A stretch of DNA of 64,000 nt, taken from positions 74,966 to 138,965 of the forward strand of contig CAMRWN010000001.1 of NCBI GenBank assembly GCA_947054455.1, read 5' to 3'. Source of the stretch: an uncultured Alphaproteobacteria bacterium. Its GTDB lineage: Bacteria > Pseudomonadota > Alphaproteobacteria > Rs-D84. This document shows positions 6,668 to 58,683 of the stretch, piece after piece (positions within the stretch are counted from its first letter, which is position 1; every line of letters starts with the position of its first letter). Below the pieces are notes generated by a model that saw only the letters and a program-made list of their open reading frames with translations, was not told the origin of the DNA and did no database searches. The translations under genes were made by a program, and so were the position numbers.

Positions 6668-6677
6668 TTGTATAATC
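6668..6677 (+). promoter_or_regulatory. Extended -10 promoter element TTGTATAATC upstream of virB8
   Basis: A TGnTATAAT-type extended -10 lies ~78 nt upstream of the virB8 GTG start. It is related to, but not identical with, the TGTGATATAAT motif found elsewhere in the window. Confidence 0.4.
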
Positions 6678-6754
6678 TGTATTTTATGCACTTTTTGCTT
6701 GCGCATGTCCGCCGTTTTTTTCTACAATCGCATTATCACGAGGGGGAGAAAAAC

Positions 6755-7451: not shown

Positions 7452-8990
7452 ATGGGCATGACGTTTTCAAGAGTGATAAAATTAAATATTTCCGCACTGT
7501 GTCTGGTTGGCACATGCTTTGCCGCAGAACCTGCCATGTTCGGCATTCAAGAGGCGTGGGACAACCCCAACGCCAACATGGCCGCAGGCAGCATAAAGCC
7601 CGGATACGCACAACTGCCGTGGTCCCAGGGCAGTGTTTTGCCAATCAAGCTGCGCAACGGAATGGTTACGATGCTGACCCTGCCCAACGGTGAACAGATT
7701 GCGGACGCCGTCGTCGGTGATTCCGGCAAGTTTGTGATTGATACGACGGTCGGCGACCGCACCATGTTCATTTCGCCAGAGGCATCAAACCAAGGCAGCG
7801 ACACAAACATGATTGTGACGGGCAAATCCGGAAACAAATACATATTCTATCTGCGGGCAGAACCGTCAAATTCCAGCGAAATCACATATTCCCAGGTTGA
7901 CGTCATACTGGACGGGAACGCGGTACTGCCGGGTGCGTCAGCGTCGGCGACCGGCGCCCAGTCAACCGGAAAGATGAGTTCGATATTTAAAAAATCGACG
8001 TCGGGCGCAGCGGGCGTTGTCGGCGTTGACGGCGAAGATTACGGCTGGATAAAATCAATGAAAATCGACCCGTCGGAATTCCGTTTCGATTTGGACATAT
8101 TCGTGCCGAACCCCGACGATTATGTCATCGCGCCGGAACGCGTGTGGCGCGACAGAATATTTACATATATTGATTTCGGGGACAAGGTTATCGCAATGAC
8201 ACAGCGACCGGTGGTTTCACTGTTGGTCGAAGGTGGCGAATCCCCGGTCGGATTCCGCACGGACGGCGAAGACGGCCGCCTGTTGATAGTAGAGGCGGTT
8301 GGCGACATGGTTCTGCGCAGCGGACAGCGCATTGTCTGCATCAAAAAGCGTGAAAAGCCGTTCCTGATTGCCGACACGGCGTCGGTCATGGCCCTGGCAG
8401 AGGCGAATGTCGCCCAATCCATGATGTCCGGACAGTCGCTGAACAATATTGCATACACAATGGACCAGAACGCGATAAACGCGGCCGGGATAAATTATAC
8501 TGGCACGCCTGTGATGATTGGCAACACCGCATCAAGTGCCGGCGCGGGATACTACATGCCGGCGGGATTTTCCACCGCCGCCACATACGGCGCAACACCG
8601 ACGGGCACCCCCGTCATGATGCCGACCGAAAGAATAACGGCGGGTTCATATTTGCCGCAATCAAACATACCGCTGATTACCAGCAACCAATCCGGGGTCG
8701 CGGTGGAACTGAAATCCGATACATCAATCAAGGCACTGGACGAATACTGGGTTGGCCTGCTGGCAAAATTCAGCGGCGAAAACGGTGTGGGCGTGCTGAC
8801 CCCTTACAAGGACATGGTGTTCTTTGCGGTTGACGAACAGGGTGTCGGTGATTTGGGCGCGGGTTCGTCAACGGCGCGCCTGTATCGCCTGCGCATAGGG
8901 CCGATGTCAGATATTGAAACCGCGCAGAAACTGTGCGACCAGCTGTTGAAGTTCAGCGGCGCCAGCTGCAGCGTGGTGCGCATCCAGTAA
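7452..8990 (+). CDS. virB9: Type IV secretion system VirB9/TrbG-like protein with a C-terminal extension carrying a SPOR-like domain
   Basis: It has a signal peptide (ALCLVGTCFAAEP). The N-terminal domain matches the VirB9 pattern (VVGDSGKFVIDTT...TNMIVTGKSGNKYIFYLRA). The VirB9 C-terminal domain is present (IFTYIDFGDKVIAMTQ...LLIVEAVGDMVLRSGQRIVCIKK). An extra ~200 aa of Gly/Ala/Thr-rich sequence then ends in LYRLRIGPMSDIETAQKLCDQLLKFSGASCSVVRI, which resembles the second half of a SPOR peptidoglycan-binding domain. Confidence 0.8.
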   Translation: MGMTFSRVIKLNISALCLVGTCFAAEPAMFGIQEAWDNPNANMAAGSIKPGYAQLPWSQGSVLPIKLRNGMVTMLTLPNGEQIADAVVGDSGKFVIDTTVGDRTMFISPEASNQGSDTNMIVTGKSGNKYIFYLRAEPSNSSEITYSQVDVILDGNAVLPGASASATGAQSTGKMSSIFKKSTSGAAGVVGVDGEDYGWIKSMKIDPSEFRFDLDIFVPNPDDYVIAPERVWRDRIFTYIDFGDKVIAMTQRPVVSLLVEGGESPVGFRTDGEDGRLLIVEAVGDMVLRSGQRIVCIKKREKPFLIADTASVMALAEANVAQSMMSGQSLNNIAYTMDQNAINAAGINYTGTPVMIGNTASSAGAGYYMPAGFSTAATYGATPTGTPVMMPTERITAGSYLPQSNIPLITSNQSGVAVELKSDTSIKALDEYWVGLLAKFSGENGVGVLTPYKDMVFFAVDEQGVGDLGAGSSTARLYRLRIGPMSDIETAQKLCDQLLKFSGASCSVVRIQ

Positions 8991-31350: not shown

Positions 31351-32671
31351 CCAACTTTTTTACAGATTCAGCCGACATCAAAATATTGTACTTGGCGTTC
31401 AACAGCGCCATGTCCAATTGATACAGGCCTGCCGAAACCTCGGCCAGTTCGATGGCCGACGTCTGGCCCGCGGCAAAACGTTCCTGAGAGAACTGGTACG
31501 CCTTGGCCGCCAGATTTCGCGCATTCTCCAGCGTCGCCAGATTGCCGCGCAAATGATTGTACTTCTTTATCGCCGTGTTGTATTCTTCTGTCTTCAGCTT
31601 TTTGGACTTGTCCAAATCCTGGCGTGCGGCCTCGGCGTCCATGGCGGAAACCGTGGCGTTCGCACGGTGCAGACCGCCGCTGAAAATCGGCATCTGCAAC
31701 GCCAGTCCCCACGACGCGGACTGCGAACCCTTTTTATCAAACATTCCGTCGAATTCGGAACCCATCGCATAATAATTGTAAGACGCGGTCGCCGCCAGTG
31801 TCGGCAGATATTCCGCACGCGACGACTTCGCTTTGGATTCGTACATGCTGACCTGCTGGGCCAGGATTTCCCATTCCGGATTGTTCTTCAGTTTTCCCGC
31901 ATCCAACGCCGAAAACTTGGTGGGGAAATTATCGGTCAGAACGATTTCCTCGTCCATGTCGATGCCCGCCAAAATCTTCAGCATGCGGTACGCCGTGTCG
32001 CGGTTGAATTCCGCATCGGACAAATTTATTTCCTTGCTGGCGATATCGGATTCGATTTTCACCAGATTGCTGCGCGACGCGCGGCCGGCCGCCCCCAGGT
32101 TGCGACGTGCGCTTTTCGCCGCCTGCAGGTCGGAACGTGCAATCTTTACTATATCATCGGTCATTTTGGCCGTCCAATACAGGTCGACCGCGCTGTATTT
32201 AACCTCGCGGCGGGTCAGCTCGCGGCTGGCCTCGGACATCTTTATTGCGGACTTTACGCTTTTGACCGCATTGCCTATCTTGCCAAATGTGTAAATTGGC
32301 TGGGACACGCTGACGCCGGCCATAAATATGTTGTCCGGTATTTCAATATACACAGACTGGTTCTTCAACGATTCCGAAATCAGTCCCCCGAACGCAGGCG
32401 GCAGCTCTATGCCCTTGGACTTGGACGGATCTTCTACGTTGACCATGTTCATATACGACGCCGTACCCTTGATATTGAACCAGCGGTTTGCATTCGCCGC
32501 ATCCAACTGGGCCTGGGCTTTTTGCACGTTGGCCTCGGCCTTTTTCAAGTCCTGGGATTCATGCATGATTTTTTCAACCGCGCCGTTCAGCGACAAATCC
32601 ATACACATCGCGTTGCCGCACAAACACGCAACACCGGCCCCTATGACAATCGCCGGTCTGATTTTAATCAT
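31343..32671 (-). CDS. tolC: TolC-family outer membrane efflux protein
   Basis: A 442-aa ORF with a signal peptide and two tandem repeats of the OEP/TolC coiled-coil pattern. Confidence 0.85.
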   Translation of the reverse strand: MIKIRPAIVIGAGVACLCGNAMCMDLSLNGAVEKIMHESQDLKKAEANVQKAQAQLDAANANRWFNIKGTASYMNMVNVEDPSKSKGIELPPAFGGLISESLKNQSVYIEIPDNIFMAGVSVSQPIYTFGKIGNAVKSVKSAIKMSEASRELTRREVKYSAVDLYWTAKMTDDIVKIARSDLQAAKSARRNLGAAGRASRSNLVKIESDIASKEINLSDAEFNRDTAYRMLKILAGIDMDEEIVLTDNFPTKFSALDAGKLKNNPEWEILAQQVSMYESKAKSSRAEYLPTLAATASYNYYAMGSEFDGMFDKKGSQSASWGLALQMPIFSGGLHRANATVSAMDAEAARQDLDKSKKLKTEEYNTAIKKYNHLRGNLATLENARNLAAKAYQFSQERFAAGQTSAIELAEVSAGLYQLDMALLNAKYNILMSAESVKKLGE

Positions 32672-33113
32672 TATTCAACTCCATCTTTGTTAAAACATTG
32701 TTCATTGTCTTCAGCGCGCCGGTCAGAACCTCTTCATCCTCGCGGCTGATGTTTTCGAACATGTGCGCAATGTCTTCACGGAACACCTCCATCGCCTGGC
32801 GGGCTATTTCCTCGCCTGCGGGCGTGCAGGAATACCATGTATTGCGACGGTCGTGTTCGTCAACGGTACGCGCGACCATTCCGTCCTGTTCCAGTTTGCG
32901 GAACGTGGCGCACAAATTCGGCGCCGGAACCATTTCGCGGCGTGCGATATCTTTTAGACGGGCACGCCCCCCAATGCTCAGCCGCACCAAAACCATCAGT
33001 TGGTTGCGCGGATATCCGGTACGGATATGCGGTGCGCGCTTTAACCGGTCAGCCAGTCTGTCTAAAATCAAGATATTTGATTCAAACAAACGAATAAATT
33101 CCTTGCGGGCCAT
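32664..33113 (-). CDS. MarR-family transcriptional regulator
   Basis: A 149-aa ORF with a winged-helix motif (RLKDIARREMVPAPNLCATFRKLEQDGMVAR). It is the first gene of the efflux operon. Confidence 0.85.
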   Translation of the reverse strand: MARKEFIRLFESNILILDRLADRLKRAPHIRTGYPRNQLMVLVRLSIGGRARLKDIARREMVPAPNLCATFRKLEQDGMVARTVDEHDRRNTWYSCTPAGEEIARQAMEVFREDIAHMFENISREDEEVLTGALKTMNNVLTKMELNND

Positions 33114-33257
33114 ATTTTATCCTTTATAATAACATCGTTCGGCCTTTAATAATTAAAAACCTGAATTATTATATTTTTTAACAAATTAATTGCAAGCACA
33201 AAATTAAAAAAATTTCAAAAATCTTTGCCTGAATATTGAAAAAAGCATTTTTTGTTA

Positions 33258-33285
33258 TTGCAAAAGCCGTAAAGTTCTTTATAAT
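33258..33285 (+). promoter_or_regulatory. Sigma70-type promoter for tRNA-Gln (TTGCAA-N16-TATAAT)
   Basis: The -35 TTGCAA lies at 33258-33263 and the -10 TATAAT at 33280-33285. The tRNA 5' end is 12 nt downstream. Confidence 0.55.
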
Positions 33286-33297
33286 CTGTGATGCCTT

Positions 33298-33371
33298 TGG
33301 GGTGTCGTCTAATGGTAGGACAAGAGATTTTGGTTCTCTTTATCATGGTTCGAATCCGTGCGCCCCAACCA
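33298..33371 (+). tRNA. trnQ: tRNA-Gln (anticodon UUG)
   Basis: The sequence is TGGGGTGTCGTCTAATGGTAGGACAAGAGATTTTGGTTCTCTTTATCATGGTTCGAATCCGTGCGCCCCAACCA. It has a 7-bp acceptor stem, anticodon loop ATTTTGG(T), a GGTTCGAATCC T-arm and an encoded CCA. Confidence 0.85.
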
Positions 33372-33383
33372 GTTTCAAAACAA

Positions 33384-33410
33384 ATGCCCCAGACGGGGCA
33401 TTTATTTTGA
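33384..33410 (+). terminator. Rho-independent terminator after tRNA-Gln
   Basis: The hairpin aaatgcccc-agac-ggggcattt is followed by a T-run. Confidence 0.65.
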
Positions 33411-33636
33411 AATGATGTATCGCGCGGATTGTAATCGTCCGTTTCACACGATTACAGCAAAACGTTATTAACGTTTTGTACGCGTTTTGTTCCAAAACGC
33501 TAGTGGGGCCATCCCCACACCCCTGTGTGCGCCCCAACCAGGATAAACAAAGTCAGCACACAGGCGACTTTTTCTTTGGTTTTCCAGTGTTTGATTTCGG
33601 AAAATAGCAATTTTTTTGAACTTTCGAACTTTTTTA

Positions 33637-33645
33637 TGATAAAAT
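33637..33645 (+). promoter_or_regulatory. Extended -10 element TGATAAAAT placed 9 nt upstream of the protease ATG (leaderless-type architecture)
   Basis: TATGATAAAAT-gcacatgaa-ATG. No -35 match. The architecture parallels the TGTGATATAAT promoters found elsewhere in the window. Confidence 0.4.
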
Positions 33646-33654
33646 GCACATGAA

Positions 33655-34581
33655 ATGCGTAAGATATTTGTATTTTTATCATGTTTAATAACAGCGCCAG
33701 CGATTGCGGCTGATGATGCCTGCACAAAGCCGAAAGAGTTCACAGTCGATAAACGTTGCTATGTTACCAGTGCACAAAAAAAACAAAAGCCATTTAATGC
33801 AACAGTCGGCTTAGTTAATGGTGATTTAAAAGCATACTGTACGGGCACAATCGTGAAGGGATACTACGGATATAACGGCGATAAAGCAACCACACAAGAA
33901 AAAGAAACCATATATGTTTATACTGCCAAACATTGCACCGACCGCAACAAAGACGGCAAACCCGACACTTATCTGGATATAGTATTACAAAATGGCGACA
34001 GTTATAAAATTAAATTTGCACGTGCTGGTCAATACAAGATTCTGTCAGACGAAAAAGCTGCAGGCGACTATGCATTATATACTATAGATGAGCAAACTGA
34101 CATTCCAGGCAGCAAAATACCATATACAACAATAAGCGACAAATGGGGGTTCCTGGGACTCAGACAACTGGATGCACGTGTTGTTGGATATGGCACATTA
34201 AAGATTATGTCCGACAAAGAAATAAAAATATTCAAAAGCAAATATATTAATTTTATGAAACAACAAGGTATGTCTGCCAAGGATTCTGGTGTAAAGATAA
34301 GCACGAAGTGGGGTACAAAATTTATGCAAAACTTAGATCATGACTACCAGAACGATTTATTCGCCAACCATAGCTTGAAAGTTTCAAATTGTAAATACCA
34401 CAGTGTCGGCACACAAATAGGCTGTCAAGCATGGAGCGGTAATTCTGGGGGTGGCATATTTGATAATAATGGCGAACTGATGGGAATTTATACCAGAGGG
34501 CATCGTATCGTAGGCGGGGAAAATCATGCAGCCTCAATTACCACAACAAAATACCCATCAACAATTCCTATCGCATTTTAA
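33655..34581 (+). CDS. Secreted trypsin-like (S1/chymotrypsin-fold) serine peptidase, island-encoded
   Basis: It has a signal peptide (FVFLSCLITAPAIAADD) and a His motif (YTAKHC). An Asp lies in DYALYTID, and the Ser motif GNSGGG is a variant of GDSGGP. The gene is AT-rich relative to the window. Confidence 0.65.
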   Translation: MRKIFVFLSCLITAPAIAADDACTKPKEFTVDKRCYVTSAQKKQKPFNATVGLVNGDLKAYCTGTIVKGYYGYNGDKATTQEKETIYVYTAKHCTDRNKDGKPDTYLDIVLQNGDSYKIKFARAGQYKILSDEKAAGDYALYTIDEQTDIPGSKIPYTTISDKWGFLGLRQLDARVVGYGTLKIMSDKEIKIFKSKYINFMKQQGMSAKDSGVKISTKWGTKFMQNLDHDYQNDLFANHSLKVSNCKYHSVGTQIGCQAWSGNSGGGIFDNNGELMGIYTRGHRIVGGENHAASITTTKYPSTIPIAF

Positions 34582-34601
34582 CAAAATTTAAGGAGCGCAC
34601 A

Positions 34602-34955
34602 ATGAAACAAAAAACAGATAAGATAAAAAACTTGAAACGCGCTGGTACGATAATTGCAATCGCGGGCAGTTTGGCACTGGGTAGCGTGTCAATTTCACGC
34701 ACCACCAAAGACGACTCCACAGATCCTACAGAAAACAAGGAATATATTAAACACTTGGAACATGTTGCGGATGAAATGACACATGAGCAAAAACTGCAAT
34801 TTATTCACGATGGAAAAGAAGTATTGAATAATCTGCAACAGAAAATTGATTCTGATGAAACCAATCCCGAAGAACGCTTTGAGGCATTAAGATCAAAACG
34901 TTTGGTTAATAAGGAAATTGAAGTAATGCAGAAAAAGTTGAATAACGGAAGATAG
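34602..34955 (+). CDS. Hypothetical small secreted or membrane-anchored protein (117 aa)
   Basis: A good RBS (AAGGAG) lies 7 nt before the ATG. The N-terminal hydrophobic segment is TIIAIAGSLALGSVSIS. The gene is AT-rich and followed by a terminator hairpin at ~34984..35010. Confidence 0.5.
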   Translation: MKQKTDKIKNLKRAGTIIAIAGSLALGSVSISRTTKDDSTDPTENKEYIKHLEHVADEMTHEQKLQFIHDGKEVLNNLQQKIDSDETNPEERFEALRSKRLVNKEIEVMQKKLNNGR

Positions 34956-35029
34956 ATATCGGCAGAATATTCTACTAATACAAAGTCGCATCTAATGGTG
35001 CGATTTTTATATTCAGATTGCATACGAGC

Positions 35030-35974
35030 TCAAAACGCTTCTTCGCAACGGTGGGTTTCTTTAATAATCTTGTTTATCTTGGTCAAACTCGCAATATTAA
35101 ATCCGGTTGAAACACCACTCAGCACAGTTGTCGCACCCGCCATCACATTCGCGGTTGTATTCAGGTTCTTTTCCTTCTTTTTGCCAGATTCTGAATTATC
35201 ATTACGAATGCCCGATGAATTTGCCACGGCACTGTTTACTGTGCCGGTTGCACCGGTAACGCCCCCCGCAATACTTGTTCCCATGACAACAGTTTGCTGT
35301 TTTTCAAATTTTTCTATTTCTGTGGCGTCAATGTTTCCACACCATGTTTTTATATTATCAAGTTTCCGAACAATTGGATTTTCCATAGGATTCAGCCCGC
35401 CTACATCCGCATTTTTGACCGATGCAACCGCGTTATTACATGCAGTTATCTGCTGTATTAAATCAGACTGATTATGATTGACACCCGACACAATCGCAGA
35501 CGTAATATTTGTTGCCGTTGCACCCGCCATCAGGCCCGTACGCCAATTTCCCATTCTTTTTGAACGTTTTTCCGCATCCACCAATTGCTGTTGCAATTCG
35601 GCAATTTCAGACATCGGCAGTATAACACTGTTAAAGAAAGTATCCGGGCTCATTTGCGCCACCGTATCGGGATTACACCCGCCGGCATCACAAATCTGCT
35701 TTTCCAAGCGTTCTATTTCTTTATCTATCTGAGCCTTGGATAATCCTGCATATAATGCACCACCAGCCGCAACGGCACCAACACCGGACACAACCGTGCC
35801 TGCCGTCGTCATATTTTTCAAATGTTGCAATTCATCGGATATACCACTACAAACAGCGCTTGTTGCATTATAAAGTTGTGTAAGTTGTAAAATTCTGTCC
35901 GCATCATCTGCATGCGCTGATGTATTAAGCGTCAACACCGCAACCATAAACAAGAACAAATAACCGGATTTCAT
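35030..35974 (-). CDS. Hypothetical secreted protein (314 aa) with Gly/Ala/Thr-rich segments and scattered Cys
   Basis: It has a signal peptide (MKSGYLFLFMVAVLTLNTSAHA). The ATG lies 9 nt from a TGTGATATAAT extended -10. The gene sits in the AT-rich island. Confidence 0.6.
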   Translation of the reverse strand: MKSGYLFLFMVAVLTLNTSAHADDADRILQLTQLYNATSAVCSGISDELQHLKNMTTAGTVVSGVGAVAAGGALYAGLSKAQIDKEIERLEKQICDAGGCNPDTVAQMSPDTFFNSVILPMSEIAELQQQLVDAEKRSKRMGNWRTGLMAGATATNITSAIVSGVNHNQSDLIQQITACNNAVASVKNADVGGLNPMENPIVRKLDNIKTWCGNIDATEIEKFEKQQTVVMGTSIAGGVTGATGTVNSAVANSSGIRNDNSESGKKKEKNLNTTANVMAGATTVLSGVSTGFNIASLTKINKIIKETHRCEEAF

Positions 35975-35982
35975 GATGATGA

Positions 35983-35995
35983 ATTATATCACAAC
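35983..35995 (-). promoter_or_regulatory. TTGTGATATAATT extended -10 promoter motif; 9 nt separate TATAAT from the ATG of the 35030..35974 gene
   Basis: This is an exact copy of the 11-mer TGTGATATAAT, read on the minus strand. Confidence 0.55.
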
Positions 35996-36295
35996 ATCTA
36001 AATACAATCTATAATAAATAACATAGGTTAGCTGTTGTCCTATGTTTTTAATATATCTATAACTTGCTCGATTTCCGGTGCCATTTTTATCAAATCATTA
36101 TAATAATTAGTTCAAAGATTGTTTATCACGCACAACCAAAAACACCCCGCGGGGTGTTTTTATTTATTTACACTTTCGAGCTGCGTGGTTGTGGTCGGCC
36201 AGCATGATGCATTGATTTTTATTTAGCAGAAACTATATATATGGTATAATTTATTGGATATTTGATTTTATTGTAAAAATAACAGAGTAGCGCTT

Positions 36296-36913
36296 ATGAC
36301 AAAAGATAGTTTTTACCAAGGGATCAAACAGATAGAACTACATAAATTTTATCATGGTTCCGCAACAAAAATCAAAGGCGATTTTTTACAACCCAGAGAA
36401 CAATTTAATAGCATTCAAAACGAACGTGTAGTCGGAGCATTTGTCACATCCGACATAAAGCACGCTAAGTTTTTTGCGATTTGGAAATGTTTAACTGGTG
36501 GTGGCCAAACACAACAAGATGTAAAAAAAGGGACAAAAAGAATTTTTTTTGAAAAATTGTCTGATAATATAAAACCAGAGTTCAATTTGTATACAGTATA
36601 CGAAGCGCCCGACACAAAATTTATTCACGACAAAGGCACAGAATATTATTCGCCTGCACCAATAAAAATCTCAGAACACCAAATATGCAATACTGTTGAA
36701 GAAATAGAAAAATTAGGATATGAAATTTATGTATTAAACGAACCATTAAAAAACAAACCCGACAAACAAACTAATAACAATCAAGCTGTCCAATCTGAAA
36801 TGCATCAAGCAATTGAAAATGGAGCGTATCATCGTGTTGATATTGCAAACTTAATTGAACAACAGAAATCAAAAAACATATTTTATAAACTATTTAATTG
36901 GCAAAAAGATTAA
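36296..36913 (+). CDS. Hypothetical protein (205 aa), island-encoded, with no signal peptide
   Basis: An AT-rich ORF preceded by a TGGTATAAT extended -10 at ~36245. A terminator hairpin (aaaccgcc-aatct-gggcggttt) lies at ~36952-36975. Confidence 0.5.
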   Translation: MTKDSFYQGIKQIELHKFYHGSATKIKGDFLQPREQFNSIQNERVVGAFVTSDIKHAKFFAIWKCLTGGGQTQQDVKKGTKRIFFEKLSDNIKPEFNLYTVYEAPDTKFIHDKGTEYYSPAPIKISEHQICNTVEEIEKLGYEIYVLNEPLKNKPDKQTNNNQAVQSEMHQAIENGAYHRVDIANLIEQQKSKNIFYKLFNWQKD

Positions 36914-37098
36914 ACTGTTCGCATCACGCTGACAGACCACAACCAAGATAAACAAAACCGCCAATCTGGGCGGTTTAATATTGGTATTGGGCCACGGGTT
37001 CGCAATCGCGACAAATGTCGCCGGTTCGACTATGAGTTGGCGTTTGGCGCATGAGCGCGGCGAACGCCATACGAATGCCCCGCAGGCGCAAATGGGTA

Positions 37099-37701
37099 CT
37101 AAAGCTCCCGCTGGCGATTGCGACGTATTGTTTCCTTTATTTCCGCGCGGCGGATTTGCACGCTGTATATCAAATCCAATACATGCCGCCCATGACAGCG
37201 ACGCCCCAGAACACGGCTGTAATATCTCCGGGACAAAACAGGCGCATCATTGCTGCCCAAAACCTGGTATGCGGCCGCATCCAAAGACGATGCAAATGTT
37301 CCTTCATCCATATTAATTTCGTAAACAAAGTCCGGACTTAAAACAGCACGCGACGCAACCGCGGTCGTATCCGCACGCATGCCGGCGTCTTTTTTGCGCA
37401 TGCGCTGTTCCAATTTTTTATTTTTCGCAACCAATTCATTGTACAACGCGTTCAGCCGCACCGTGTCATGCGCCAGCATTCCTATCAGCGACGCGTCCGC
37501 AACAGGACAATGAGACGTATCACGCATATGGCGCGCGGCATAGTTATAGTGCAGCCATACCGGCCCCATATAGGCCACAAATTTATGGACTGGTTCCTCT
37601 TCCCAGACCTGGATATAAATTCTTTGGCTGCATGCGGTCGCCATCAGTGTCATCGACGCCAAGGATGCCTTTAGAACCGCATTTTTTATCTTGTTTTCCA
37701 T
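37099..37701 (-). CDS. Hypothetical lipoprotein (200 aa)
   Basis: The N-terminal signal ends in the lipobox LMATAC. No family recognised. Confidence 0.5.
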   Translation of the reverse strand: MENKIKNAVLKASLASMTLMATACSQRIYIQVWEEEPVHKFVAYMGPVWLHYNYAARHMRDTSHCPVADASLIGMLAHDTVRLNALYNELVAKNKKLEQRMRKKDAGMRADTTAVASRAVLSPDFVYEINMDEGTFASSLDAAAYQVLGSNDAPVLSRRYYSRVLGRRCHGRHVLDLIYSVQIRRAEIKETIRRNRQREL

Positions 37702-37837
37702 TTGTTTAAATTCCGGATATGCATAATTTCATAGTTATTCCTGTAAACATAACCACAAATCAGCAAAAATGCAATATGACGATTTTAAAAAAAATTTGAT
37801 GACAAAAATCAAAACAATGTTATTATAGGGTACGTCC

Positions 37838-37912
37838 GCTCCCATCGTCTAGCGGTTAGGACATCAGATTCTCATTCTGACGACACGGGTTCGAGTCCCG
37901 TTGGGAGTGCCA
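37838..37912 (+). tRNA. trnE: tRNA-Glu (anticodon CUC)
   Basis: The sequence is GCTCCCATCGTCTAGCGGTTAGGACATCAGATTCTCATTCTGACGACACGGGTTCGAGTCCCGTTGGGAGTGCCA. It folds as a cloverleaf with anticodon loop TTCTCAT (CTC), a GGTTCGAGTCC T-arm, a G1-U72 wobble in the acceptor stem and a 3' CCA. A terminator hairpin follows (gcccc-aaa-gggc, T-run). Confidence 0.75.
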
Positions 37913-37965
37913 AGATAAAAAAATTGCCCCAAAGGGCATTTTTTTTACGCCAAACTACCCACTAA

Positions 37966-38700
37966 TCAATTTTTATCCCCGTAATACAGACGCTTGTATT
38001 CACGGTGCACGACGTTCATCAGTTCGCGGCGGGGCGTGCGCTGTTCGGCGGAAAAGACGTATGAAAAATCGCCGTACATATTGTCTTCCCAATCTATAAA
38101 GGTGGTGATTTCCATTGTTTCTGGATTCACCAAAAAATTGTCGCATATATCACCCTGGAACCATCCGTACATAAATCCGGGCGCACCCGCGTCGGCCGGT
38201 TTCAAATCGCGCAATTGGGCCGGATCCCGACGCGCGATTTCATGGATAAAAACCGCAATCTGACGCGCCAGCGTATCAATATTGGCCAACACATCTTCGG
38301 TCGACAACTGACGCAGCGTGCATCCGCGAATAAATTCATACTTGCGAACAATGTGTCCGTCATAGTCCAGCAGCTCCACCCCCGGTATCGGTATTGGCGA
38401 GACGGCATGAAACACATCGACAACACGCTTTTCACGCAGCGCAAGTTCGCGCGAATTGTCCCGGCGCAGCGGAAACTTGTATATATATTCGTCGTTAACG
38501 CCTATAATCAGATTGCGCGTCTGCTGACCGACGAACATCTTGACCCGGCGCAGCGGCTGCTTCAAATCTTTTTTAATAAACTTTATATGCCGTATTGTCG
38601 GCGAATTCAATACCGCACGCAGCGTTTTGCGCCGATGCTTGTTATAAACCAGCGCACAAATAATATTCGTAAAAAAACGCCTGATTTTTGAGCTTTCCAT
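37966..38700 (-). CDS. Phosphotransferase/kinase-like protein (aminoglycoside phosphotransferase/choline kinase fold)
   Basis: A 244-aa ORF with a Brenner-like motif (QGDICDNFLV) and a downstream IDWED motif resembling the APH catalytic and Mg-binding loops. Confidence 0.5.
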   Translation of the reverse strand: MESSKIRRFFTNIICALVYNKHRRKTLRAVLNSPTIRHIKFIKKDLKQPLRRVKMFVGQQTRNLIIGVNDEYIYKFPLRRDNSRELALREKRVVDVFHAVSPIPIPGVELLDYDGHIVRKYEFIRGCTLRQLSTEDVLANIDTLARQIAVFIHEIARRDPAQLRDLKPADAGAPGFMYGWFQGDICDNFLVNPETMEITTFIDWEDNMYGDFSYVFSAEQRTPRRELMNVVHREYKRLYYGDKN

Positions 38701-42611: not shown

Positions 42612-42624
42612 TTGTGATATAATC
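42612..42624 (+). promoter_or_regulatory. TTGTGATATAATC extended -10 promoter motif upstream of the secreted repeat-protein operon
   Basis: An exact TGTGATATAAT 11-mer, 56 nt upstream of the ATG at 42680. Confidence 0.5.
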
Positions 42625-42679: not shown

Positions 42680-42954
42680 TGAAGCATCGATTGCTGCCGA
42701 TAGTTTTTACGGCTCAATGCTTTATATTATCTATGCCGTCTTTTGGTGCCACACCAAACGAACAGGTGGCATCTGCGGCATATGTCGACAACCGCGTCAA
42801 CGAAATGGAAAGCCGCACCGTCAACAAGGACGAATTCAAAACATTTTCCGACGAACTGCCCAATCGCTTTGTCGACACCACCGAAAATCAGACAATTTCC
42901 GGTGTAAAAACTTATACGTCTTCCCCGATTGTTCCGACGCCGCCGCTGCCGTAA
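42680..42954 (+). CDS. Small secreted hypothetical protein (91 aa), first gene of a two-gene operon
   Basis: A strong RBS (AAGGGGGA) lies 7 nt before the ATG. It has a signal peptide (MKHRLLPIVFTAQCFILSMPSFGA). Its stop overlaps the next gene's start (TAATG). Confidence 0.6.
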
Positions 42955-44231
42955 TGATAAAACGTCTGCTGATTCTTTTTTGCATATTGTTCGCACCCGC
43001 CGCCCGGTCGGCGGAAATGGTCAGCGTCGAATACATTCACAACGCCATCGAACAACGCTGCGGCATCGTCGTGCCGTACAATCCCGCGCTGGGCAACAAG
43101 AAAGTCGCCGCAAATATGAAATATCTGCTGACGGCGATTGACCGGGCGAACGAAATACAAAACAACCGGGCCGTTTCACACTACGGCGACAATTCGACAT
43201 TTGCAACAATGGCGGCCGCCGACACGGTCGCGACAAATGACGCGATTGACCGCCTGATAAAGATGCCGTTTACCATCACCACAACGCCCGATACAACCGT
43301 GTTCAACTTTGACCTGTCCGCGCGCGGAACATTTGCGGTCAACTGGGGCGACGGCACGTTCCAAACAATCCAGCGCGATAATACAGAATTACAAACATAT
43401 TCCCACACATACGCCAAGGCCGGCAAATATAAAATCGGAATTGCCGGAACGGCAACAGGATATAGCATTGCGGACGACACCCCAAACACAACCGCGGCAA
43501 TACATTTTAGAAAGAACGAAAACATTGCGGAAATTCATGGCTCGGTTGGGGCAATATTCGGCACCATCGGCGATGGCACGATTGCCGGAAATCAACCGAA
43601 TTTTCGCAACACATTCCGCGAATGCCCCAACCTGACCAGCGAAATTCCCGCCGAATTGTTCGACGGCGTTCATGGCGCGCCCGTTCCATGGATGTTTGCC
43701 GGAACTTTTGAAGCCACGCCGTTTTCTGGTTCCATACCTGAAAATTTGTTTTCCGGCATACAGGGCAGTCCGATATTCGCAATGTTTAACAACACATTCA
43801 AAGAAAGTAAGATTTCCGGCACGATACCCGCAAAACTGTTCAGCGGGATACACGGCGCGCCCGCGCCCTATATGTTCGCCGGCACATTTTACTGGGTGGA
43901 AAACTTGACCGGTAGCATCCCCGCAGGCATGTTTGCCGGAATTCGTGGTGAACCTGCAATATATATGTATCACGGCTTGTTTGTTAATTGTTCCGGTCTG
44001 ACCGGCCAGATTCCCGAAAATTTGTTTGGCGACATTTCCGGCCCCGCCGCCGAATTCATGTTTCGTTATACATTCCAAAACTGCAGCGGTCTGACCGGGC
44101 CGTCGGCGCGTATCAACGGCAAATATCTGTATGAAATATGGCCCGACGCGCCCGCCAACGCAACCCAGTTATGCTATAAAAGCGTAACAGGCTTATCCGA
44201 TTATGCCACGATACCGGCGGCATGGAAATAA
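42954..44231 (+). CDS. Secreted protein with ~6 tandem ~31-aa LRR-like repeats of pattern MF.GTF...L(T/S)G.IP..LF.GI.G.P (DUF285/BspA-like character)
   Basis: It has a signal peptide (MIKRLLILFCILFAPAARSA). Six repeats cover aa ~215-400, for example MFAGTFEATPFSGSIPENLFSGIQGSPIFA, MFNNTFKESKISGTIPAKLFSGIHGAPAPY and MFAGTFYWVENLTGSIPAGMFAGIRGEPAIY. The ORF is translationally coupled to the upstream small gene. Confidence 0.7.
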   Translation: MIKRLLILFCILFAPAARSAEMVSVEYIHNAIEQRCGIVVPYNPALGNKKVAANMKYLLTAIDRANEIQNNRAVSHYGDNSTFATMAAADTVATNDAIDRLIKMPFTITTTPDTTVFNFDLSARGTFAVNWGDGTFQTIQRDNTELQTYSHTYAKAGKYKIGIAGTATGYSIADDTPNTTAAIHFRKNENIAEIHGSVGAIFGTIGDGTIAGNQPNFRNTFRECPNLTSEIPAELFDGVHGAPVPWMFAGTFEATPFSGSIPENLFSGIQGSPIFAMFNNTFKESKISGTIPAKLFSGIHGAPAPYMFAGTFYWVENLTGSIPAGMFAGIRGEPAIYMYHGLFVNCSGLTGQIPENLFGDISGPAAEFMFRYTFQNCSGLTGPSARINGKYLYEIWPDAPANATQLCYKSVTGLSDYATIPAAWK

Positions 44232-53539: not shown

Positions 53540-55606
53540 CTATAAAACCTCTACAAAATTTTTCATGACATTTTTTATTCCGCACGAACCGAACGCCACG
53601 GTCAGCACGTCGCCGTTTTCCGCGATAACGGTGCCGCGGCCCATTTCCGCATGCGCGACCAGTTTGCCGACCATCGTGGTCGAAATTCTGGGGCGCGGGG
53701 CCGGGCGCGGGCCGTATGCACGCGGAACGTCGGCATATGCACGGCGCGGCGCACCGCCCTGGAAATCCAAAAACGCACCGTCCATTTCAGTGATGAACCG
53801 GCTGGGCGAATTATACTGTCGCGTACCGAAAACCATGCGCGACATCGCGTTTAATATAACCGCACGGCGGCGCGCACGCGTTATCGCGACATAGGCCAGA
53901 CGACGCTCCTCTTCCAGGGCGCCCTCCGACACGGCCTTGTCGTTGGGGAATATTCCCTCCTCCCAGGCGGGCATGAACACCGTGTCAAATTCCAGACCCT
54001 TGGCCGCATGTATTGTCATTATACTGACCACGTTGCCGTTTTGGCGGACTTCGCCCTCGTCATCATCGGTGGTCATCAGGGCGGCTTGCTCTAAAAATTC
54101 GGGCAGGCTTTCATACTTTGCAATTACGTTCGTTATCAGTTCGCGAATATTGTCCAGTCGGTCTGACGCGTCGGCATCCTTGGATTCACGCCACATCTTC
54201 AGGTATCCGCTGCGTTCCAGCAGGGTCTGTGCCGCCTCACGCGGGGGCATGGTCGCCCAGTCGAAATCAAACGCCCCCAGAAATTCGTCCGCCGCCGCAC
54301 GTTGTTTCGCCGGCAGCGCGGCTGCACGCAACCCGGTCATCAAATCGGCGCCCGCCGCACGCAGCTTGTCTATTGCGGCCGCACCGAAACCGCGCCGCGG
54401 CTTTGCAATAACGCGCAGAAACGATATATCGTCAAACGGATAGACCAGCAGTCGCAAATATGCAATCGCATCACGGATTTCCATCCTGTCATAAAACTTG
54501 GTCGCGCCGACAAGGCGGTACGCAATGCCGCGGCGCGCAAACTCTTCTTCAAACAGGCGCGACAGACTGCCCGCGCGTATCAAGACCGCATGCCGACTAA
54601 GATTTTCAGTACCTTCGCGGGAAATCGCATCGGCGACGACGCGCGCCTCGTCCAAATCGGACGGCACCGTCAGGATATATACCGGCTCGCCGTCGTTAAC
54701 GTCGGGCGCGCTGCGCAAATCCTTGCCCAGGCGGCCGCGATTGTGCCGTATCAGGGAATTTGCCGCCCCCAGGATGCGGGGCGTGCTGCGATAATTTGTT
54801 TCCAGACGGATTATCTGAACATCATCATATGTCTTGTCAAAATTCAGGATATGTTTTATCTCGGCCCCGCGCCATGAATATATGGACTGGTCGTCATCGC
54901 CGACGCAGCATATGTTCGGTTGCGGACGGACACGGGTCAGCATCTCCAGAAACTGCATCTGCGCGCTGTTGGTATCCTGGAATTCATCAACCATTATATA
55001 TTTGAACTGGTTTTGATAACGCCCCAGAATTTCTGGATTGGAATCAAACAGCTGCAAGACCTTTAGTATTATGTCCCCGAAATCAACCGCGTTCAGCCGC
55101 GCCAGTTCCGCGTTGTACGCGGCAAACATCTTGTCCGGATGGGACAGCGCGTCCAGCCCCCGGTCCTTGATTGCGGAAAACTGTTCCACATAATCGCCGG
55201 GTGTTTTTGTCGCACCGCCCGACGCGGTCAGCAGGCTTTTCACGACAGCCTTTTGGTCGTCTTCGCCAAATATTATGAAATCCCGGCGCAATCCGGCGGC
55301 GGCCGCATTCGCACGCAGTATCCGCAGACATACCGAATGAAACGTGCCGCACCACAAATCCGCGGCGTTCCACGTGGCGGACGCGTCCGCAAAATCTGCG
55401 ATACGCCGCTTCATTTCATTGGCCGCCTTGTTCGTGAATGTCAGGGCCAGCACCTGCCACGGCATCGCCAGACCGGTGTTCAATATATGCGCGACGCGCG
55501 TTGTCAGAACGCGCGTCTTGCCCGTCCCCGCCCCCGACAGAACCAACAGCGGCCCTTCGGTCGTTTCGACGGCCAGACGCTGTTCGTTGTTAAGATTTTC
55601 TAGCAT
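53540..55606 (-). CDS. uvrD: UvrD/Rep/PcrA-family ATP-dependent DNA helicase
   Basis: The Walker A (LVLSGAGTGKTRVLT) and UvrD helicase motifs are present (TFTNKAANEM, VDEFQDTN, TIHAAKGLEFD, VAITRAR). The start is placed at MLENLN. Confidence 0.85.
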   Translation of the reverse strand: MLENLNNEQRLAVETTEGPLLVLSGAGTGKTRVLTTRVAHILNTGLAMPWQVLALTFTNKAANEMKRRIADFADASATWNAADLWCGTFHSVCLRILRANAAAAGLRRDFIIFGEDDQKAVVKSLLTASGGATKTPGDYVEQFSAIKDRGLDALSHPDKMFAAYNAELARLNAVDFGDIILKVLQLFDSNPEILGRYQNQFKYIMVDEFQDTNSAQMQFLEMLTRVRPQPNICCVGDDDQSIYSWRGAEIKHILNFDKTYDDVQIIRLETNYRSTPRILGAANSLIRHNRGRLGKDLRSAPDVNDGEPVYILTVPSDLDEARVVADAISREGTENLSRHAVLIRAGSLSRLFEEEFARRGIAYRLVGATKFYDRMEIRDAIAYLRLLVYPFDDISFLRVIAKPRRGFGAAAIDKLRAAGADLMTGLRAAALPAKQRAAADEFLGAFDFDWATMPPREAAQTLLERSGYLKMWRESKDADASDRLDNIRELITNVIAKYESLPEFLEQAALMTTDDDEGEVRQNGNVVSIMTIHAAKGLEFDTVFMPAWEEGIFPNDKAVSEGALEEERRLAYVAITRARRRAVILNAMSRMVFGTRQYNSPSRFITEMDGAFLDFQGGAPRRAYADVPRAYGPRPAPRPRISTTMVGKLVAHAEMGRGTVIAENGDVLTVAFGSCGIKNVMKNFVEVL

Positions 55607-55673
55607 TAAATTCACGCCTCTATTATAATACACAAAGTTTGTTAATCAAAAATATATTTTATGGGGAAGGAAA

Positions 55674-56351
55674 ATGAAACGCGTCATCTGCTTTGACATT
55701 GAAACAACCGGATTTGATTACCTGCGCGGGGACCGGTGCATCGAAATCGGCGCGGTGGAACTGATAGACGGAAAACTGACCGACAATTCATTTCACGAAT
55801 ACATAAACCCCGAAGGAAAAATCATTCCGCCTGAAACATACATGGTTCACAAAATTTCAAACGCATTTCTGGAAGACAAGCCAAAGATGTCCGAAATTGC
55901 GCCGAAATTTCTGGAATTCATCGGCGACAGCCCCGTCATCGCCCACAACGGACTGGACTTTGACTTTCCCTTTGTAAATCATGAACTGTCAAAACTGGGC
56001 CTGCCCCAGATTCCGCGTGAACAGCAATTCGACACGCTGGTCATCGCGCGCAACCGCGTATTCGGCCCCAAGAGCTATACTTTGGACGCACTGGCAAAAT
56101 GGTTTGGAATATCGCTGGCGACGCGTGCGGACGCGCACGGGGCGCTAATCGACTCTGAAATTCTGGCCAAGGTGTATGTGGAACTGGAAAACACCGCACC
56201 GGCGCCCGACATCCGCGATATAATTGCCGACCATCACAAGGCCATGCTGGCCCATCCGAAAATAGGCGCAGATTTTCCACGACGCAAATTTGCCCCGCAT
56301 GCGGACGAACTGGCCAATCATACGGCGTTTATGGAAAAGATAACGGCATAA
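55674..56351 (+). CDS. dnaQ: DNA polymerase III epsilon subunit-like 3'-5' exonuclease
   Basis: The three DEDDh exonuclease motifs are present: Exo I (FDIETTG), Exo II (IAHNGLDFDFPF) and Exo III (HGALIDSEILAKVY). Confidence 0.85.
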   Translation: MKRVICFDIETTGFDYLRGDRCIEIGAVELIDGKLTDNSFHEYINPEGKIIPPETYMVHKISNAFLEDKPKMSEIAPKFLEFIGDSPVIAHNGLDFDFPFVNHELSKLGLPQIPREQQFDTLVIARNRVFGPKSYTLDALAKWFGISLATRADAHGALIDSEILAKVYVELENTAPAPDIRDIIADHHKAMLAHPKIGADFPRRKFAPHADELANHTAFMEKITA

Positions 56352-56352
56352 A

Positions 56353-56396
56353 AAAAATCCCGCGCAGTTTGATGCGCGGGATTTTTTTTATTTTGT
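56353..56396. terminator. Bidirectional rho-independent terminator between dnaQ and the 743-aa secreted protein gene
   Basis: The 10-bp GC stem atcccgcgca-gtttga-tgcgcgggat is flanked by A and T runs. Confidence 0.75.
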
Positions 56397-58619
56397 TTCC
56401 TGTTGTGTACAGATACCGCCCTTCATGCTGTATCCCTCATCACATACGCATTGGCCCGTGGTCGGGTTGCGCTTTGAATTGGCGCCACAGTTCAAAACAC
56501 AGGCCGTCCCCCACAGCGTATATCCAACATTGCAGGTGCATCTGGCGTTGACATAACACTTCTGGGTAGGCGACGCAACGCAACCGTTTACGCTCAACGT
56601 CGATTCTTCCTGCTGATATGTGGAATTTTCCGGACACAGCAACGACTGATAGAACATTTCGGAAATATTACTGATGCATGTATCCGGGCTATCGGCGGGG
56701 CATAGCGCTTTATCATCATTATCCGTGGCATCCTGGAACACCGCATACGCACAGGTCAGCGCAACATTGCGGCACGCACCACGCATTACGTTGTAAATGC
56801 TGTTGATTGTTGCTGACGAAGACCATGAATTAACCTGGGTCACCTGCTGGTTATAACATGTCGCGATTTCAGTCATGCATGTTGACGCATAATCCGAAAT
56901 AATCTTTTGCTGCGCGGCCTTGATGTTTACCATCGCACGCTGTACATAATTTACAACAACATCGTTATACGGCTCATAAGTTCCGGACGACGAATATGTG
57001 TAATTCTGACACTTGTCCAAAACCGCACGGCACAGACCACCATCGGTGGTTTTTTGCCCCGTTCCGATTTTCGTCATCAGATATTTTACATTGCACGCTC
57101 CGTCGCCGCCTTTACCGTCATCACCAACGCAGGCGTCCTTGCTGATTGAAGACATTTTGTCCGCGGCTGCCAGAAAACCGCGGTTAATATCCGCATTGTT
57201 ATAGTTTTCCATAAACGTGGTTATATCGGTTATATTCTGCCCCAGGACGACATTGCCGTTTTCGTCGATATATCTTTTCGTCGGGTCCAGACACTTGTTG
57301 TAATCGGCACCGCACACCATGTCGTCGGTCATGCATGCATCCAGCGCGGCGATGCATCCCTTGGCATCGTATTGGTTCTTGTTCTGCAAAACGGCCAGAC
57401 GCGCCTTTTGCAGCATGCGACCCGCACTGCGCACATTTGACACCAGCGTTTCATTCATCTTGGTCAATCCCTGCTCGTACGCGATACAGTCCTTGTCAAT
57501 CGCCAGGTCGTAATTGCCGGTTATCTGCTGGGACGTGGCGCCAACCTCCTTGCACTGGGTCAGGATTGTGTTGCAGCGCCGTTTTGCCGCATTATACAAT
57601 TCCGTTCCGCGCAGGTTTGAAAAACTGCTGCTGGCGCCGGCATTCAGGAAATCCAGACTAAACATGTCGGAATTGTCGGCCGAAAAATCCAAATCTATAT
57701 CAAATCCGTTGTATGTGTCCGCGGAATAGGAGGTCGCACTGACCGGGTCTTTTATCAGCTTTTCAATTTCATCAAGCATGCTGCGCGTTTCGGTGCTATC
57801 CACCTTGCCCGACAGTGCCTCTTCCGCCTCTGTCGCGGTCATAATCGCACGTATTTCATCAGCCGACAAACCAACATAGCGAATACGCTGCGCGACATCG
57901 TTAAGCTGGGTGTTGGCCTCTTTCACGGCATTTTCAACCTTGGTGTATCGCGACAGGTTTGCACTGCAGCTGCAGCGTTTCTGATTTGCGTCGACAACCG
58001 CGCAGAACTGGTCCATGCAGTCATTATACTGTTCCTGGCAGGATTTGTTAAGCTCCGCCGTTTGTTCCAGACGCTCCTTGGCCTCTGCTATGGATTCGCG
58101 GGTTGTTTGTGCTGCGGCACGGGCGCTGACACTGCGGGCGCTGGACGCAACGTTTGACCCCGTCTGAATATTTGTTTCACCGATTGTGGCGCGGCCCCCG
58201 ACCTCTGCCGTGCTGGGGCGCAGCGTCACGCCCACCCGGCGCAACGCGGGGTCGTTGTTTATTGCAGCGGCGCTGACGCGGGCGTTGCGACCAACCGTGT
58301 TCACCGCCGCATCCAGACCGGCGCGCGACGCGACGGCCGCAGACGACGACTGGGCCGCGCGATGCGCGACACTGGATTGACGCACACTGGCCGTATCACG
58401 CGTTGGCGCGGCGGCCGACGCATCAGACGCCGTACGTGAAATTGTGCGCGACGGCGCGGCCGCGGTGCGCGCGACGGCCGTGCGGGCGGTGTCGGTCGAC
58501 GACGGCGCCGCAGTTGCGCCCGATGACGGAATCACGCGCGATGCAGTCGCACCGTCGGCCGCAAACGCGCCGGGTGCAAAAAACATTCCGCAGAAAAAGC
58601 ACAGTGCAAGTTTATTCAT
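56388..58619 (-). CDS. Large secreted Cys-rich hypothetical protein (743 aa) with a ~190-aa Ala/Ser/Thr/Arg-rich low-complexity N-terminal region
   Basis: It has a signal peptide (MNKLALCFFCGMFFAPGAFAADG). More than 45 Cys are concentrated in the C-terminal 550 aa, with no recognisable repeat family. Its ATG lies 10 nt from a TGTGATATAAT extended -10. Confidence 0.65.
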   Translation of the reverse strand: MNKLALCFFCGMFFAPGAFAADGATASRVIPSSGATAAPSSTDTARTAVARTAAAPSRTISRTASDASAAAPTRDTASVRQSSVAHRAAQSSSAAVASRAGLDAAVNTVGRNARVSAAAINNDPALRRVGVTLRPSTAEVGGRATIGETNIQTGSNVASSARSVSARAAAQTTRESIAEAKERLEQTAELNKSCQEQYNDCMDQFCAVVDANQKRCSCSANLSRYTKVENAVKEANTQLNDVAQRIRYVGLSADEIRAIMTATEAEEALSGKVDSTETRSMLDEIEKLIKDPVSATSYSADTYNGFDIDLDFSADNSDMFSLDFLNAGASSSFSNLRGTELYNAAKRRCNTILTQCKEVGATSQQITGNYDLAIDKDCIAYEQGLTKMNETLVSNVRSAGRMLQKARLAVLQNKNQYDAKGCIAALDACMTDDMVCGADYNKCLDPTKRYIDENGNVVLGQNITDITTFMENYNNADINRGFLAAADKMSSISKDACVGDDGKGGDGACNVKYLMTKIGTGQKTTDGGLCRAVLDKCQNYTYSSSGTYEPYNDVVVNYVQRAMVNIKAAQQKIISDYASTCMTEIATCYNQQVTQVNSWSSSATINSIYNVMRGACRNVALTCAYAVFQDATDNDDKALCPADSPDTCISNISEMFYQSLLCPENSTYQQEESTLSVNGCVASPTQKCYVNARCTCNVGYTLWGTACVLNCGANSKRNPTTGQCVCDEGYSMKGGICTQQETK

Positions 58620-58628
58620 TCTCAGCTA

Positions 58629-58641
58629 AATTATATCACAA
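58629..58641 (-). promoter_or_regulatory. TTGTGATATAATT extended -10 promoter motif; 10 nt separate TATAAT from the ATG of the 743-aa secreted protein gene
   Basis: An exact TGTGATATAAT 11-mer, read on the minus strand. Confidence 0.55.
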
Positions 58642-58683
58642 GTATATTTGTTTTGAAAAACAAATTTTCAACACGGTCAAAAT

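Follow-up and report, generated by a model that had tools for sequence, protein, structure and literature searches.

Gene, Promoter, and Terminator

The window analyzed here is a 64,000-nucleotide stretch of contig CAMRWN010000001.1 from an uncultured alphaproteobacterium of the Rs-D84 lineage, and the gene in question lies on its minus strand at 56388..58619. It starts with ATG, ends in a stop codon at 56388–56390, and encodes a cysteine-rich protein of 743 amino acids, whose mature form is computed to have about 722 residues, a mass of 77 kDa, and a pI of 5.1. A sequence-only reading of the window had proposed this protein as a secreted surface protein or effector associated with a type IV secretion system (T4SS). 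That the open reading frame (ORF) is a real gene is confirmed by relatives in 277 species genomes, found when every GTDB species was searched through a single representative genome.

The gene is preceded on the minus strand by a promoter at 58630..58659, which consists of a weak −35 element (TTTTCA, 58654–58659), a spacer of 18 nucleotides, and the extended −10 element TGaTATAAT (58630–58638). The exact 11-mer TGTGATATAAT occupies 58630–58640 and ends 10 nucleotides upstream of the ATG, as the sequence-only reading had reported. With only this distance between the −10 element and the start codon, the mRNA should be nearly leaderless, with a leader of approximately 2–4 nucleotides. For 65 of the 73 orthologous loci, a script located an extended −10 (TGnTAnAAT) 9–17 nucleotides upstream of the ATG; seven of the eight loci that it missed show the element on inspection, the script having taken the ATG within ATGATATAAT as the start. 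A near-leaderless transcript from a consensus promoter is therefore a predicted trait that is conserved throughout the ortholog group. The two paralogs that were inspected have ordinary leaders with Shine–Dalgarno-like sequences.

At the other end of the gene, a near-perfect bidirectional intrinsic terminator (56348..56391, both strands; 19-bp stem with flanking A8 and T8 runs) overlaps the stop codon. It is shared with a convergent dnaQ-like gene, which makes the gene a self-contained monocistronic unit.

The same 11-mer lies on the plus strand at 48271–48281, 31 nucleotides upstream of a tandem run of four membrane-protein genes, and this coincidence had been taken as a signature of co-regulation with a T4SS. 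This interpretation is not supported. TGnTATAAT is simply the extended −10 consensus of sigma-70 promoters in general, and the window has nine of these sites against 1.6 expected, one of them preceding a Na+/H+ exchanger gene. Exact copies of TGTGATATAAT number four against 0.06 expected by chance. The motif marks strong promoters and not a T4SS regulon. One of the remaining exact copies lies only 8 nucleotides from the ATG of a 314-residue protein of unknown function (35030–35974, minus strand). Another, at 42613–42623 (plus strand), is upstream of one or two uncharacterized secreted proteins: an ORF with a signal peptide starts near 42657 (plus strand), and a 504-residue ORF (42717–44231, plus strand) contains repeated IPxxLFxGIxGxP units and has a weak PKD match (E 0.02) as its sole Pfam match.

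Anatomy of the Protein

Five regions can be distinguished, for which identities are given as pairwise values among orthologs, taken from ortholog and cross-clade alignments. Residues 1–21 (58557..58619, minus strand) appear to form a Sec-type signal peptide, MNKLALCFFCGMFFAPGAFA, which was read from the sequence with predicted cleavage between AFA and the following AD. It is the sole hydrophobic stretch of the protein by Kyte–Doolittle analysis, lacks a lipobox, and is conserved in the alignment (48% identity). The signal peptide described in the sequence-only reading is thereby borne out.

Residues 22–99 (58323..58556, minus strand) form a low-complexity arm rich in Thr, Ser, Ala, Arg, and Val, with an arginine every 5–12 residues. 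The arm varies strongly among orthologs (24% identity, length 71–118 residues) and is predicted to be disordered, with a predicted local distance difference test score (pLDDT) below 40 in the first AlphaFold model. It is followed by a basic segment of residues 100–165 (58125..58322, minus strand) with the consensus VGRNARVSAAxINNxPxxRRxGxTLRPSTAEVGGRAxI…QTGSN, whose length is fixed at 66 residues and which is 73% identical. The earlier description of some 190 residues composed almost exclusively of Ala, Ser, Thr, Arg, and Val captured the basic Ser/Thr/Ala/Arg-rich arm correctly, but these five residues make up 69% of positions 22–190, and the low-complexity label fits the variable residues 22–99 and not the fixed-length segment behind them. 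Arm and segment together have a computed pI of 11.9, compared with 4.8 for the core and 4.4 for the C-terminal tip. We regard the conserved segment as a candidate anchoring or docking element.

The core comprises residues 166–630 (56730..58124, minus strand; 77% identity) and appears to be a cysteine-stapled alpha-helical domain. Its framework consists of 18 cysteines (residues 194, 201, 206, 216, 218, 349, 356, 378, 422, 429, 436, 443, 530, 537, 581, 588, 616, and 623). No fewer than 373 of 376 family members retain each of these, across clades that are just 28–46% identical. Co-loss of cysteines among the 376 members yielded no disulfide pairs, since framework cysteines are almost never lost. 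The protein has 34 cysteines in total, 32 of them in the mature form and all of these between residues 194 and 737; the count of more than 45 given by the sequence-only reading was too high. Many cysteines recur at C-x6-C spacing (i/i+7). Comparison of the two core halves with hhalign gave no indication of an internal duplication (probability 3.5%), in agreement with the earlier statement that internal repeats are absent at the level of domains, although that statement overlooked the recurring C-x6-C pattern and two small modules in the tip.

This tip, residues 631–743 (56391..56729, minus strand), is the least conserved part outside the arm (44% identity) and varies in length. It consists of a hypervariable stretch (residues 631–690) and two cysteine knots in beta-hairpins that resemble epidermal growth factor (EGF) modules (nucleotides 56409–56558), formed by C688/C694/C696/C707 and C711/C724/C726/C737. 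The EGF-like signature C-x-C-x2-G-[YF]-x4-5-G-x2-C occurs twice, at residues 694–707 and 724–737, without a Pfam EGF match. Foldseek matches to the furin-like domain of the EGF receptor and to ephrin-receptor-like cysteine-rich domains are non-significant.

An Undescribed Protein Family

More than 1,000 relatives were retrieved at E≤1e-3, and the top 120 are full-length and 61–100% identical. In an exhaustive profile search the family amounted to 703 clusters at 50% identity, of which 227 had E≤1e-30. No member is named, the shared module corresponds to no Pfam domain in any of them, and in the literature on Enterousia, Rs-D84, and gut Alphaproteobacteria with a T4SS we found no description of the protein. 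The family is undescribed, and it has been found only in gut Alphaproteobacteria with tiny genomes (Candidatus Enterousia and relatives). Homologs are labeled "Alphaproteobacteria bacterium", "uncultured Rickettsiales bacterium", or "Candidatus Enterousia sp." and come from the guts of humans, ruminants, birds, and termites. Two records labeled "Bacteroides fragilis" and "Muribaculaceae bacterium" (L003, CAVGNU010000001.1, and P0295) carry the gene with full Enterousia-type synteny; these are most likely mis-binned or mislabeled public contigs from metagenome-assembled genomes.

The window protein shows all traits that define the family, namely the signal peptide, the Ser/Thr/Arg-rich arm, the motif C-x2-3-[YF]-x2-C-M-D-x2-C…R-C-x-C, and the helical core with 18 cysteines. 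Within the window the motif is found in this ORF only, and in related loci it is found in two gene families. At least three paralog clades coexist in the same genomes, the first being the orthologs of the window protein. Members of the second are about 35–40% identical to it, and two of them (P0173 and P0347) share contigs with orthologs (P0112 and L019). The third and more distant clade, termed fam10, comprises proteins of about 725 residues with 28 cysteines that have the signal peptide, the Ser/Thr/Arg-rich arm, and the C..Y..CMD..C motif in common with the others (for example, L002 6581–8752 and L088 5949–8768). Synteny was counted over 80 species loci, and in 28 of these a fam10 gene lies just upstream in the order fam10-rplU-rpmA-ortholog, adjoining a gene for a PagL-like lipid A deacylase. 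The 64-kb window has no paralog, and the position of fam10 is taken by genes for valyl-tRNA synthetase and an acyl-acyl carrier protein thioesterase. The neighbors of the paralog clades are genes for cardiolipin synthase, OmpA, LptD, LptF/G, and PagL, with no T4SS genes among them.

Many family members are 1,000–2,338 residues long, with the shared module at the N-terminus and a C-terminal extension of 600–1,600 residues. These extensions contain 4–11% cysteine, repeated small cysteine knots, and Pro/Thr/Glu-rich (PT-rich) linkers. Listeria–Bacteroides repeats (PF09479) were detected in four of ten long members scanned (P0127, P0128, P0129, and P0133), and precomputed annotation lists PF09479 in a further one, P0277.

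Structure Model and Fold Searches

An initial AlphaFold model from 20 close orthologs (pLDDT 52) was replaced by one based on an alignment of 107 sequences spanning two clades, which reached a pLDDT of 83.6 and a predicted template modeling score of 0.70. In this model the core is elongated and all-helical, with two helices of about 50 residues each and a helical body of 7 nm. Residues 295–330 are predicted to form a disordered variable loop, and the C-terminal beta-hairpin cysteine knots are modeled with a pLDDT of about 90.

The protein has no Pfam or NCBIfam domain, as the sequence-only reading had stated: scans at E≤10 returned only noise (DUF2959, 0.048, and Ppl_antiphage, 0.0021, far below cut-offs). 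Seventeen diverse members of the family likewise gave no match in Pfam, no toxin or enzyme domain was found in 27 members scanned, and a PDB sequence-profile search with the window protein revealed no relative. The remote-homology check that had been recommended did deliver a confident model, but no structural relative in either database searched; Foldseek found nothing at E≤1e-3 in PDB (best E 1.4, TM at most 0.14) or in BFVD (best E 0.09). We provisionally conclude that the modeled fold is without known relative among PDB and BFVD structures.

Several specific identities were considered and rejected. A phage origin does not fit, since no BFVD match to tape-measure or tail proteins reaches significance and the chromosomal surroundings of the gene are conserved. 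VirB5/TrbJ, a profile of a three-helix bundle of about 220 residues, is not matched by this 743-residue protein in Pfam or NCBIfam at E≤10, nor in the Foldseek search of PDB. Helicobacter Hcp and other Sel1-like proteins (PF08238) give no Pfam match, and hhalign detects no internal repeat. Finally, chlamydial OmcB and DUF11 proteins (Chlam_OMP6 or DUF11) give no Pfam match, and the model is all-alpha.

Variability and Selection

The pattern of variation within the protein was quantified by Nei–Gojobori estimates of the ratio of non-synonymous to synonymous substitution rates (dN/dS), in a comparison with the 95% identical strain L090. The estimates come from one pair with small counts and give dN/dS of 0.02–0.04 for the core, 0 (no non-synonymous change) for residues 100–165, 0.76 for the arm, and 1.33 for residues 631–690; the dnaQ and thioesterase neighbors have values of 0.07 and 0.14, respectively. 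Of the 38 substitutions that separate the two proteins, the last 113 residues account for 22, the arm for seven, the loop of residues 295–330 for six, and the segment of residues 100–165 for none. The core is under strong purifying selection. Median identity is 63%, compared with 70% for the UvrD-like helicase.

In the loop (nucleotides 57630–57737, residues 295–330), dS between the two strains is 0.86, versus about 0.09 in the remaining gene. This roughly tenfold excess of synonymous divergence suggests a recombination patch.

Genomic Neighborhood and the T4SS Question

The window does contain genuine T4SS genes on its plus strand, namely virB8 (6668–7432), a virB9/cagX gene (7452–8990) whose product has a C-terminal, peptidoglycan-binding SPOR domain, and a virB10/trbI gene (9015–11384) for a protein of 789 residues with an N-terminal match to an ASH-like beta-sandwich. 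This cluster directly adjoins the rpoB…nusG ribosomal gene cluster and is not followed by virB11 or virD4. The window also carries rpoB, rplL, rplJ, rplA, rplK, and nusG along with ordinary housekeeping genes. Two plus-strand ORFs at 880–2550 and 3112–3732 were rejected as T4SS neighbors, as they merely shadow the minus-strand rpoB gene.

Nearer to the gene of interest lies a block of five tandem paralogous membrane-protein genes, at 46954–48243 (minus strand) and at 48313–49581, 49582–50802, 50799–52229, and 52226–53527 (plus strand), beside which is a leaderless gene for a 169-residue protein (46376–46885, minus strand). The five proteins are polytopic, with 4–11 hydrophobic segments, and mutually paralogous; three of them have an N-terminal C-[WF]-x-C motif in common. 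Block and 169-residue gene are syntenic in about 40 species. The sequence-only reading had placed our gene 2.8 kb from a virB6 block, and the distance is right (2,861 bp, from 53527 to 56388), but the virB6 label has no profile support. No block protein matches Pfam (E≤10), NCBIfam, or PDB profiles, including TrbL/VirB6 (PF04610), and precomputed annotation of the orthologous loci lists no Pfam entry for them. Alignments by hhalign with five plasmid VirB6 proteins gave probabilities of 0.3% and 5.4%, the profiles being so shallow that very remote homology is possible. The virB8–virB10 genes lie 36–45 kb from the block, and no vir gene adjoins it.

In about 40–50 of the 80 species the gene adjoins dnaQ, uvrD, and the five-gene block. 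In about 43 of the 80, no more than 12 kb separates it from the block, and three different arrangements occur. In L004, L054, and L060 it follows the block directly on the same strand, and in L012 and L023 it is 6 kb away with other genes between. In about 30 of the 80 species it is far from the block. Because the genomes are small and broadly syntenic, such synteny is weak evidence of a link, and we consider the link between the protein and a T4SS to be weak.

Elsewhere in the window, an island at about 32000–38000 has a GC content of 0.40–0.46, versus 0.52–0.55 in the rest, and may have been horizontally acquired; it includes a gene for a trypsin-like peptidase (33655–34581) and the above-mentioned gene for a 314-residue protein with TGTGATATAAT 8 nucleotides from its ATG.

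Proposed Function and Alternatives

With moderate confidence, we propose that this lineage-specific protein is abundant in the envelope or at the cell surface and has an anchor–stalk–tip layout. Surface exposure is suggested by the hypervariable tip and by the C-terminal Listeria–Bacteroides repeats, cysteine knots, and linkers of relatives, and of the roles offered by the sequence-only reading, that of a surface-displayed interaction factor fits these features best. A possible sequence of events begins at the consensus extended −10 promoter and the terminator hairpin, both of which are present at the locus and which would yield a nearly leaderless monocistronic mRNA, probably at a high level. 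The product would be exported by the Sec pathway and cut after AFA21. In the oxidizing periplasm, the 18 framework cysteines could form about nine disulfides that staple an elongated helical bundle of some 450 residues, with i/i+7 cysteine pairs on one face of a helix bridging to neighboring helices. The basic arm and the 66-residue Arg/Gly/Thr segment might then tether the acidic body (pI 4.8) to a docking partner or to an anionic constituent of the envelope, which is the weakest step of the proposal. The tip, whose variability is evident and which in relatives is elaborated with further domains, would finally point outward and touch partner cells, host material, or phages.

A number of points weigh against this proposal. 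That the protein is abundant and exposed on the surface is inferred, as are the way its disulfides pair and what the arm does. The window protein itself lacks Listeria–Bacteroides repeats according to Pfam, the EGF-like call is based on a cysteine pattern and non-significant Foldseek matches, and the dN/dS of residues 631–690 derives from one pair with 26.5 non-synonymous and 5.5 synonymous changes. Furthermore, no device for translocation across or anchoring in the outer membrane was recognized (autotransporter barrel, lipobox, or type 1 or type 9 signal), and for this reason the protein could stay in the periplasm. Outer-membrane proteins of Brucella are covalently attached to peptidoglycan through an N-terminal Ala-Asp. 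By analogy, one might speculate that the protein is attached through its own Ala-Asp, although just about half of the orthologs would have a mature N-terminus of this kind.

A purely periplasmic role, as a disulfide-rich helical scaffold between the membranes such as an envelope spacer or tether, accommodates the Sec signal and the lack of a recognized outer-membrane targeting feature. It would also suit a core conserved to a degree comparable with housekeeping neighbors (dN/dS 0.02–0.04) and the presence of LptD, LptF/G, OmpA, and cardiolipin synthase genes next to paralogs. We nevertheless judge it unlikely, given that the tip is hypervariable with a dN/dS of about 1 or more, that relatives reach 2,338 residues with repeats, EGF-like knots, and PT-rich linkers typical of extracellular proteins, and that a 7-nm helical body with large extensions is hard to fit into the periplasm.

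Somewhat more doubtful is a part in a T4SS. Substrates of VirB/D4 systems are recruited from the cytoplasm by the coupling protein via a C-terminal secretion signal and have no Sec signal. The protein fits this description poorly, because it has an apparent Sec signal, its C-terminus is poorly conserved (44%) and variable in length, and its 18-cysteine framework points to folding under oxidizing conditions. Among T4SS routes, only one through the periplasm would possibly remain, in which the protein is exported by Sec, folds in the periplasm, and is displayed or released by a T4SS that includes the five-gene block, much as pertussis toxin is by Ptl. The genuine virB8, virB9, and virB10 genes, the frequent location within 12 kb of the block, the identical 11-mer before the gene and the first gene of the block, and the lack of another apparent export route to the surface could all be accommodated in this way. 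However, the block proteins match no TrbL/VirB6 model and are not encoded beside virB3 or virB4, and the virB8–virB10 genes are 45 kb from our gene. The promoter motif is generic and also precedes unrelated genes, the linkage is missing in the roughly 30 species with a distant block and is devalued by the small, broadly syntenic genomes, and two paralog clades occur in envelope-biogenesis contexts and not in T4SS contexts.

Translocation by a T4SS into the cytosol of a host cell, where the protein would act as an effector or toxin, was the other role initially suggested, and it appears highly improbable. It would be in keeping with the proximity of putative T4SS-related genes and with the prediction that the lineage is an obligate symbiont or parasite (PMC12306168). 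Against it, a cleavable Sec signal and an invariant 18-cysteine framework fit neither recruitment from the cytoplasm nor a reducing cytosol. Conservation is lowest at the C-terminus, which is where secretion signals of this type are found; no toxin or enzyme domain turned up in the 27 scanned members; and the evolutionary rate of the core is as low as that of housekeeping genes. Our preferred reading remains a protein of the envelope or cell surface whose base is conserved and whose tip varies.

We also entertain, as a tentative and rather unlikely extension of this preferred reading, that the 18-cysteine "twin C-x6-C" module is a new fold that serves as the conserved base of the main surface spikes of Enterousia and other Rs-D84 bacteria. 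With three or more paralogs in a genome below 1 Mb and with tips, hypervariable or expanded, that could be exchanged, these spikes would attach the obligately partner-dependent bacterium to other cells and be exported via an unusual T4SS or the five-gene block.

Significance

Bacteria of the order Rs-D84 have genomes of 0.75–1.0 Mb that encode no TCA (tricarboxylic acid) cycle, respiration, or standard nutrient transporters, and they are predicted to be obligate symbionts or parasites that draw metabolites from other cells, to depend on partners, and to have many unexplained envelope proteins (PMC12306168). Rs-D84 and Candidatus Enterousia are widespread in human, livestock, bird, and termite guts (PMC12306168). 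For a genome of about 900 genes, keeping at least three paralogs of more than 700 residues is a heavy investment in one family. The family is a candidate attachment factor and an apparently new protein scaffold, and it could serve as an antigen or marker with which to detect, enrich, and image Rs-D84 bacteria. If the spike reading is true, the protein would be key to the partner contact of a widespread uncultured gut lineage. The analysis further corrects the view of the promoter motif and the neighboring genes as marks of a T4SS regulon.

Comparison with Known Systems

One comparison is with OmcB, the 60-kDa cysteine-rich outer membrane complex protein of Chlamydia. OmcB and, by prediction, the window protein are Sec-exported envelope proteins of about 60–77 kDa from obligately host-associated bacteria with small genomes, both have many conserved cysteines with presumed structural disulfides, and in both a basic N-terminal stretch precedes a cysteine-rich body. 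The basic stretch of OmcB binds host glycosaminoglycans. The two proteins show no sequence relationship (no Pfam match, 17 diverse members), and the beta-sandwich repeats of OmcB contrast with the elongated alpha-helical bundle of our model, in which the variable region is the C-terminal tip.

Cysteines at fixed spacing are familiar from the twin-CX(n)C proteins, which include the CHCH proteins (twin-Cx9C) and the small Tim proteins (twin-Cx3C), and cysteine-containing helical repeats occur in Helicobacter CagY and Hcp. In these and in the window protein (C-x6-C), regularly spaced cysteines on one helix face are presumed to staple antiparallel helices. Spacing, size, and compartment differ, however, and the window protein matches neither Sel1 nor CHCH in Pfam and lacks an internal repeat. 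The haptoglobin–hemoglobin receptor of T. brucei (PDB 4x0j) is one of the elongated three-helix-bundle receptors on the surface of trypanosomes. It is among the top Foldseek matches, being a long extracellular helical bundle, as the window protein may be. That match is non-significant (E 2.4, TM 0.12–0.23, rmsd 28 Å) and reflects a generic resemblance between long bundles.

The PF09479 (Flg_new) adhesins of Gram-negative and Gram-positive bacteria differ from the window protein in that the latter lacks the repeat and has an 18-cysteine helical base without counterpart in described adhesins (Foldseek, PDB). The long members of the family likewise carry 2–5 repeats, cysteine knots, and PT-rich linkers, and the family and these adhesins have a common logic, in which a conserved base supports a variable distal end.

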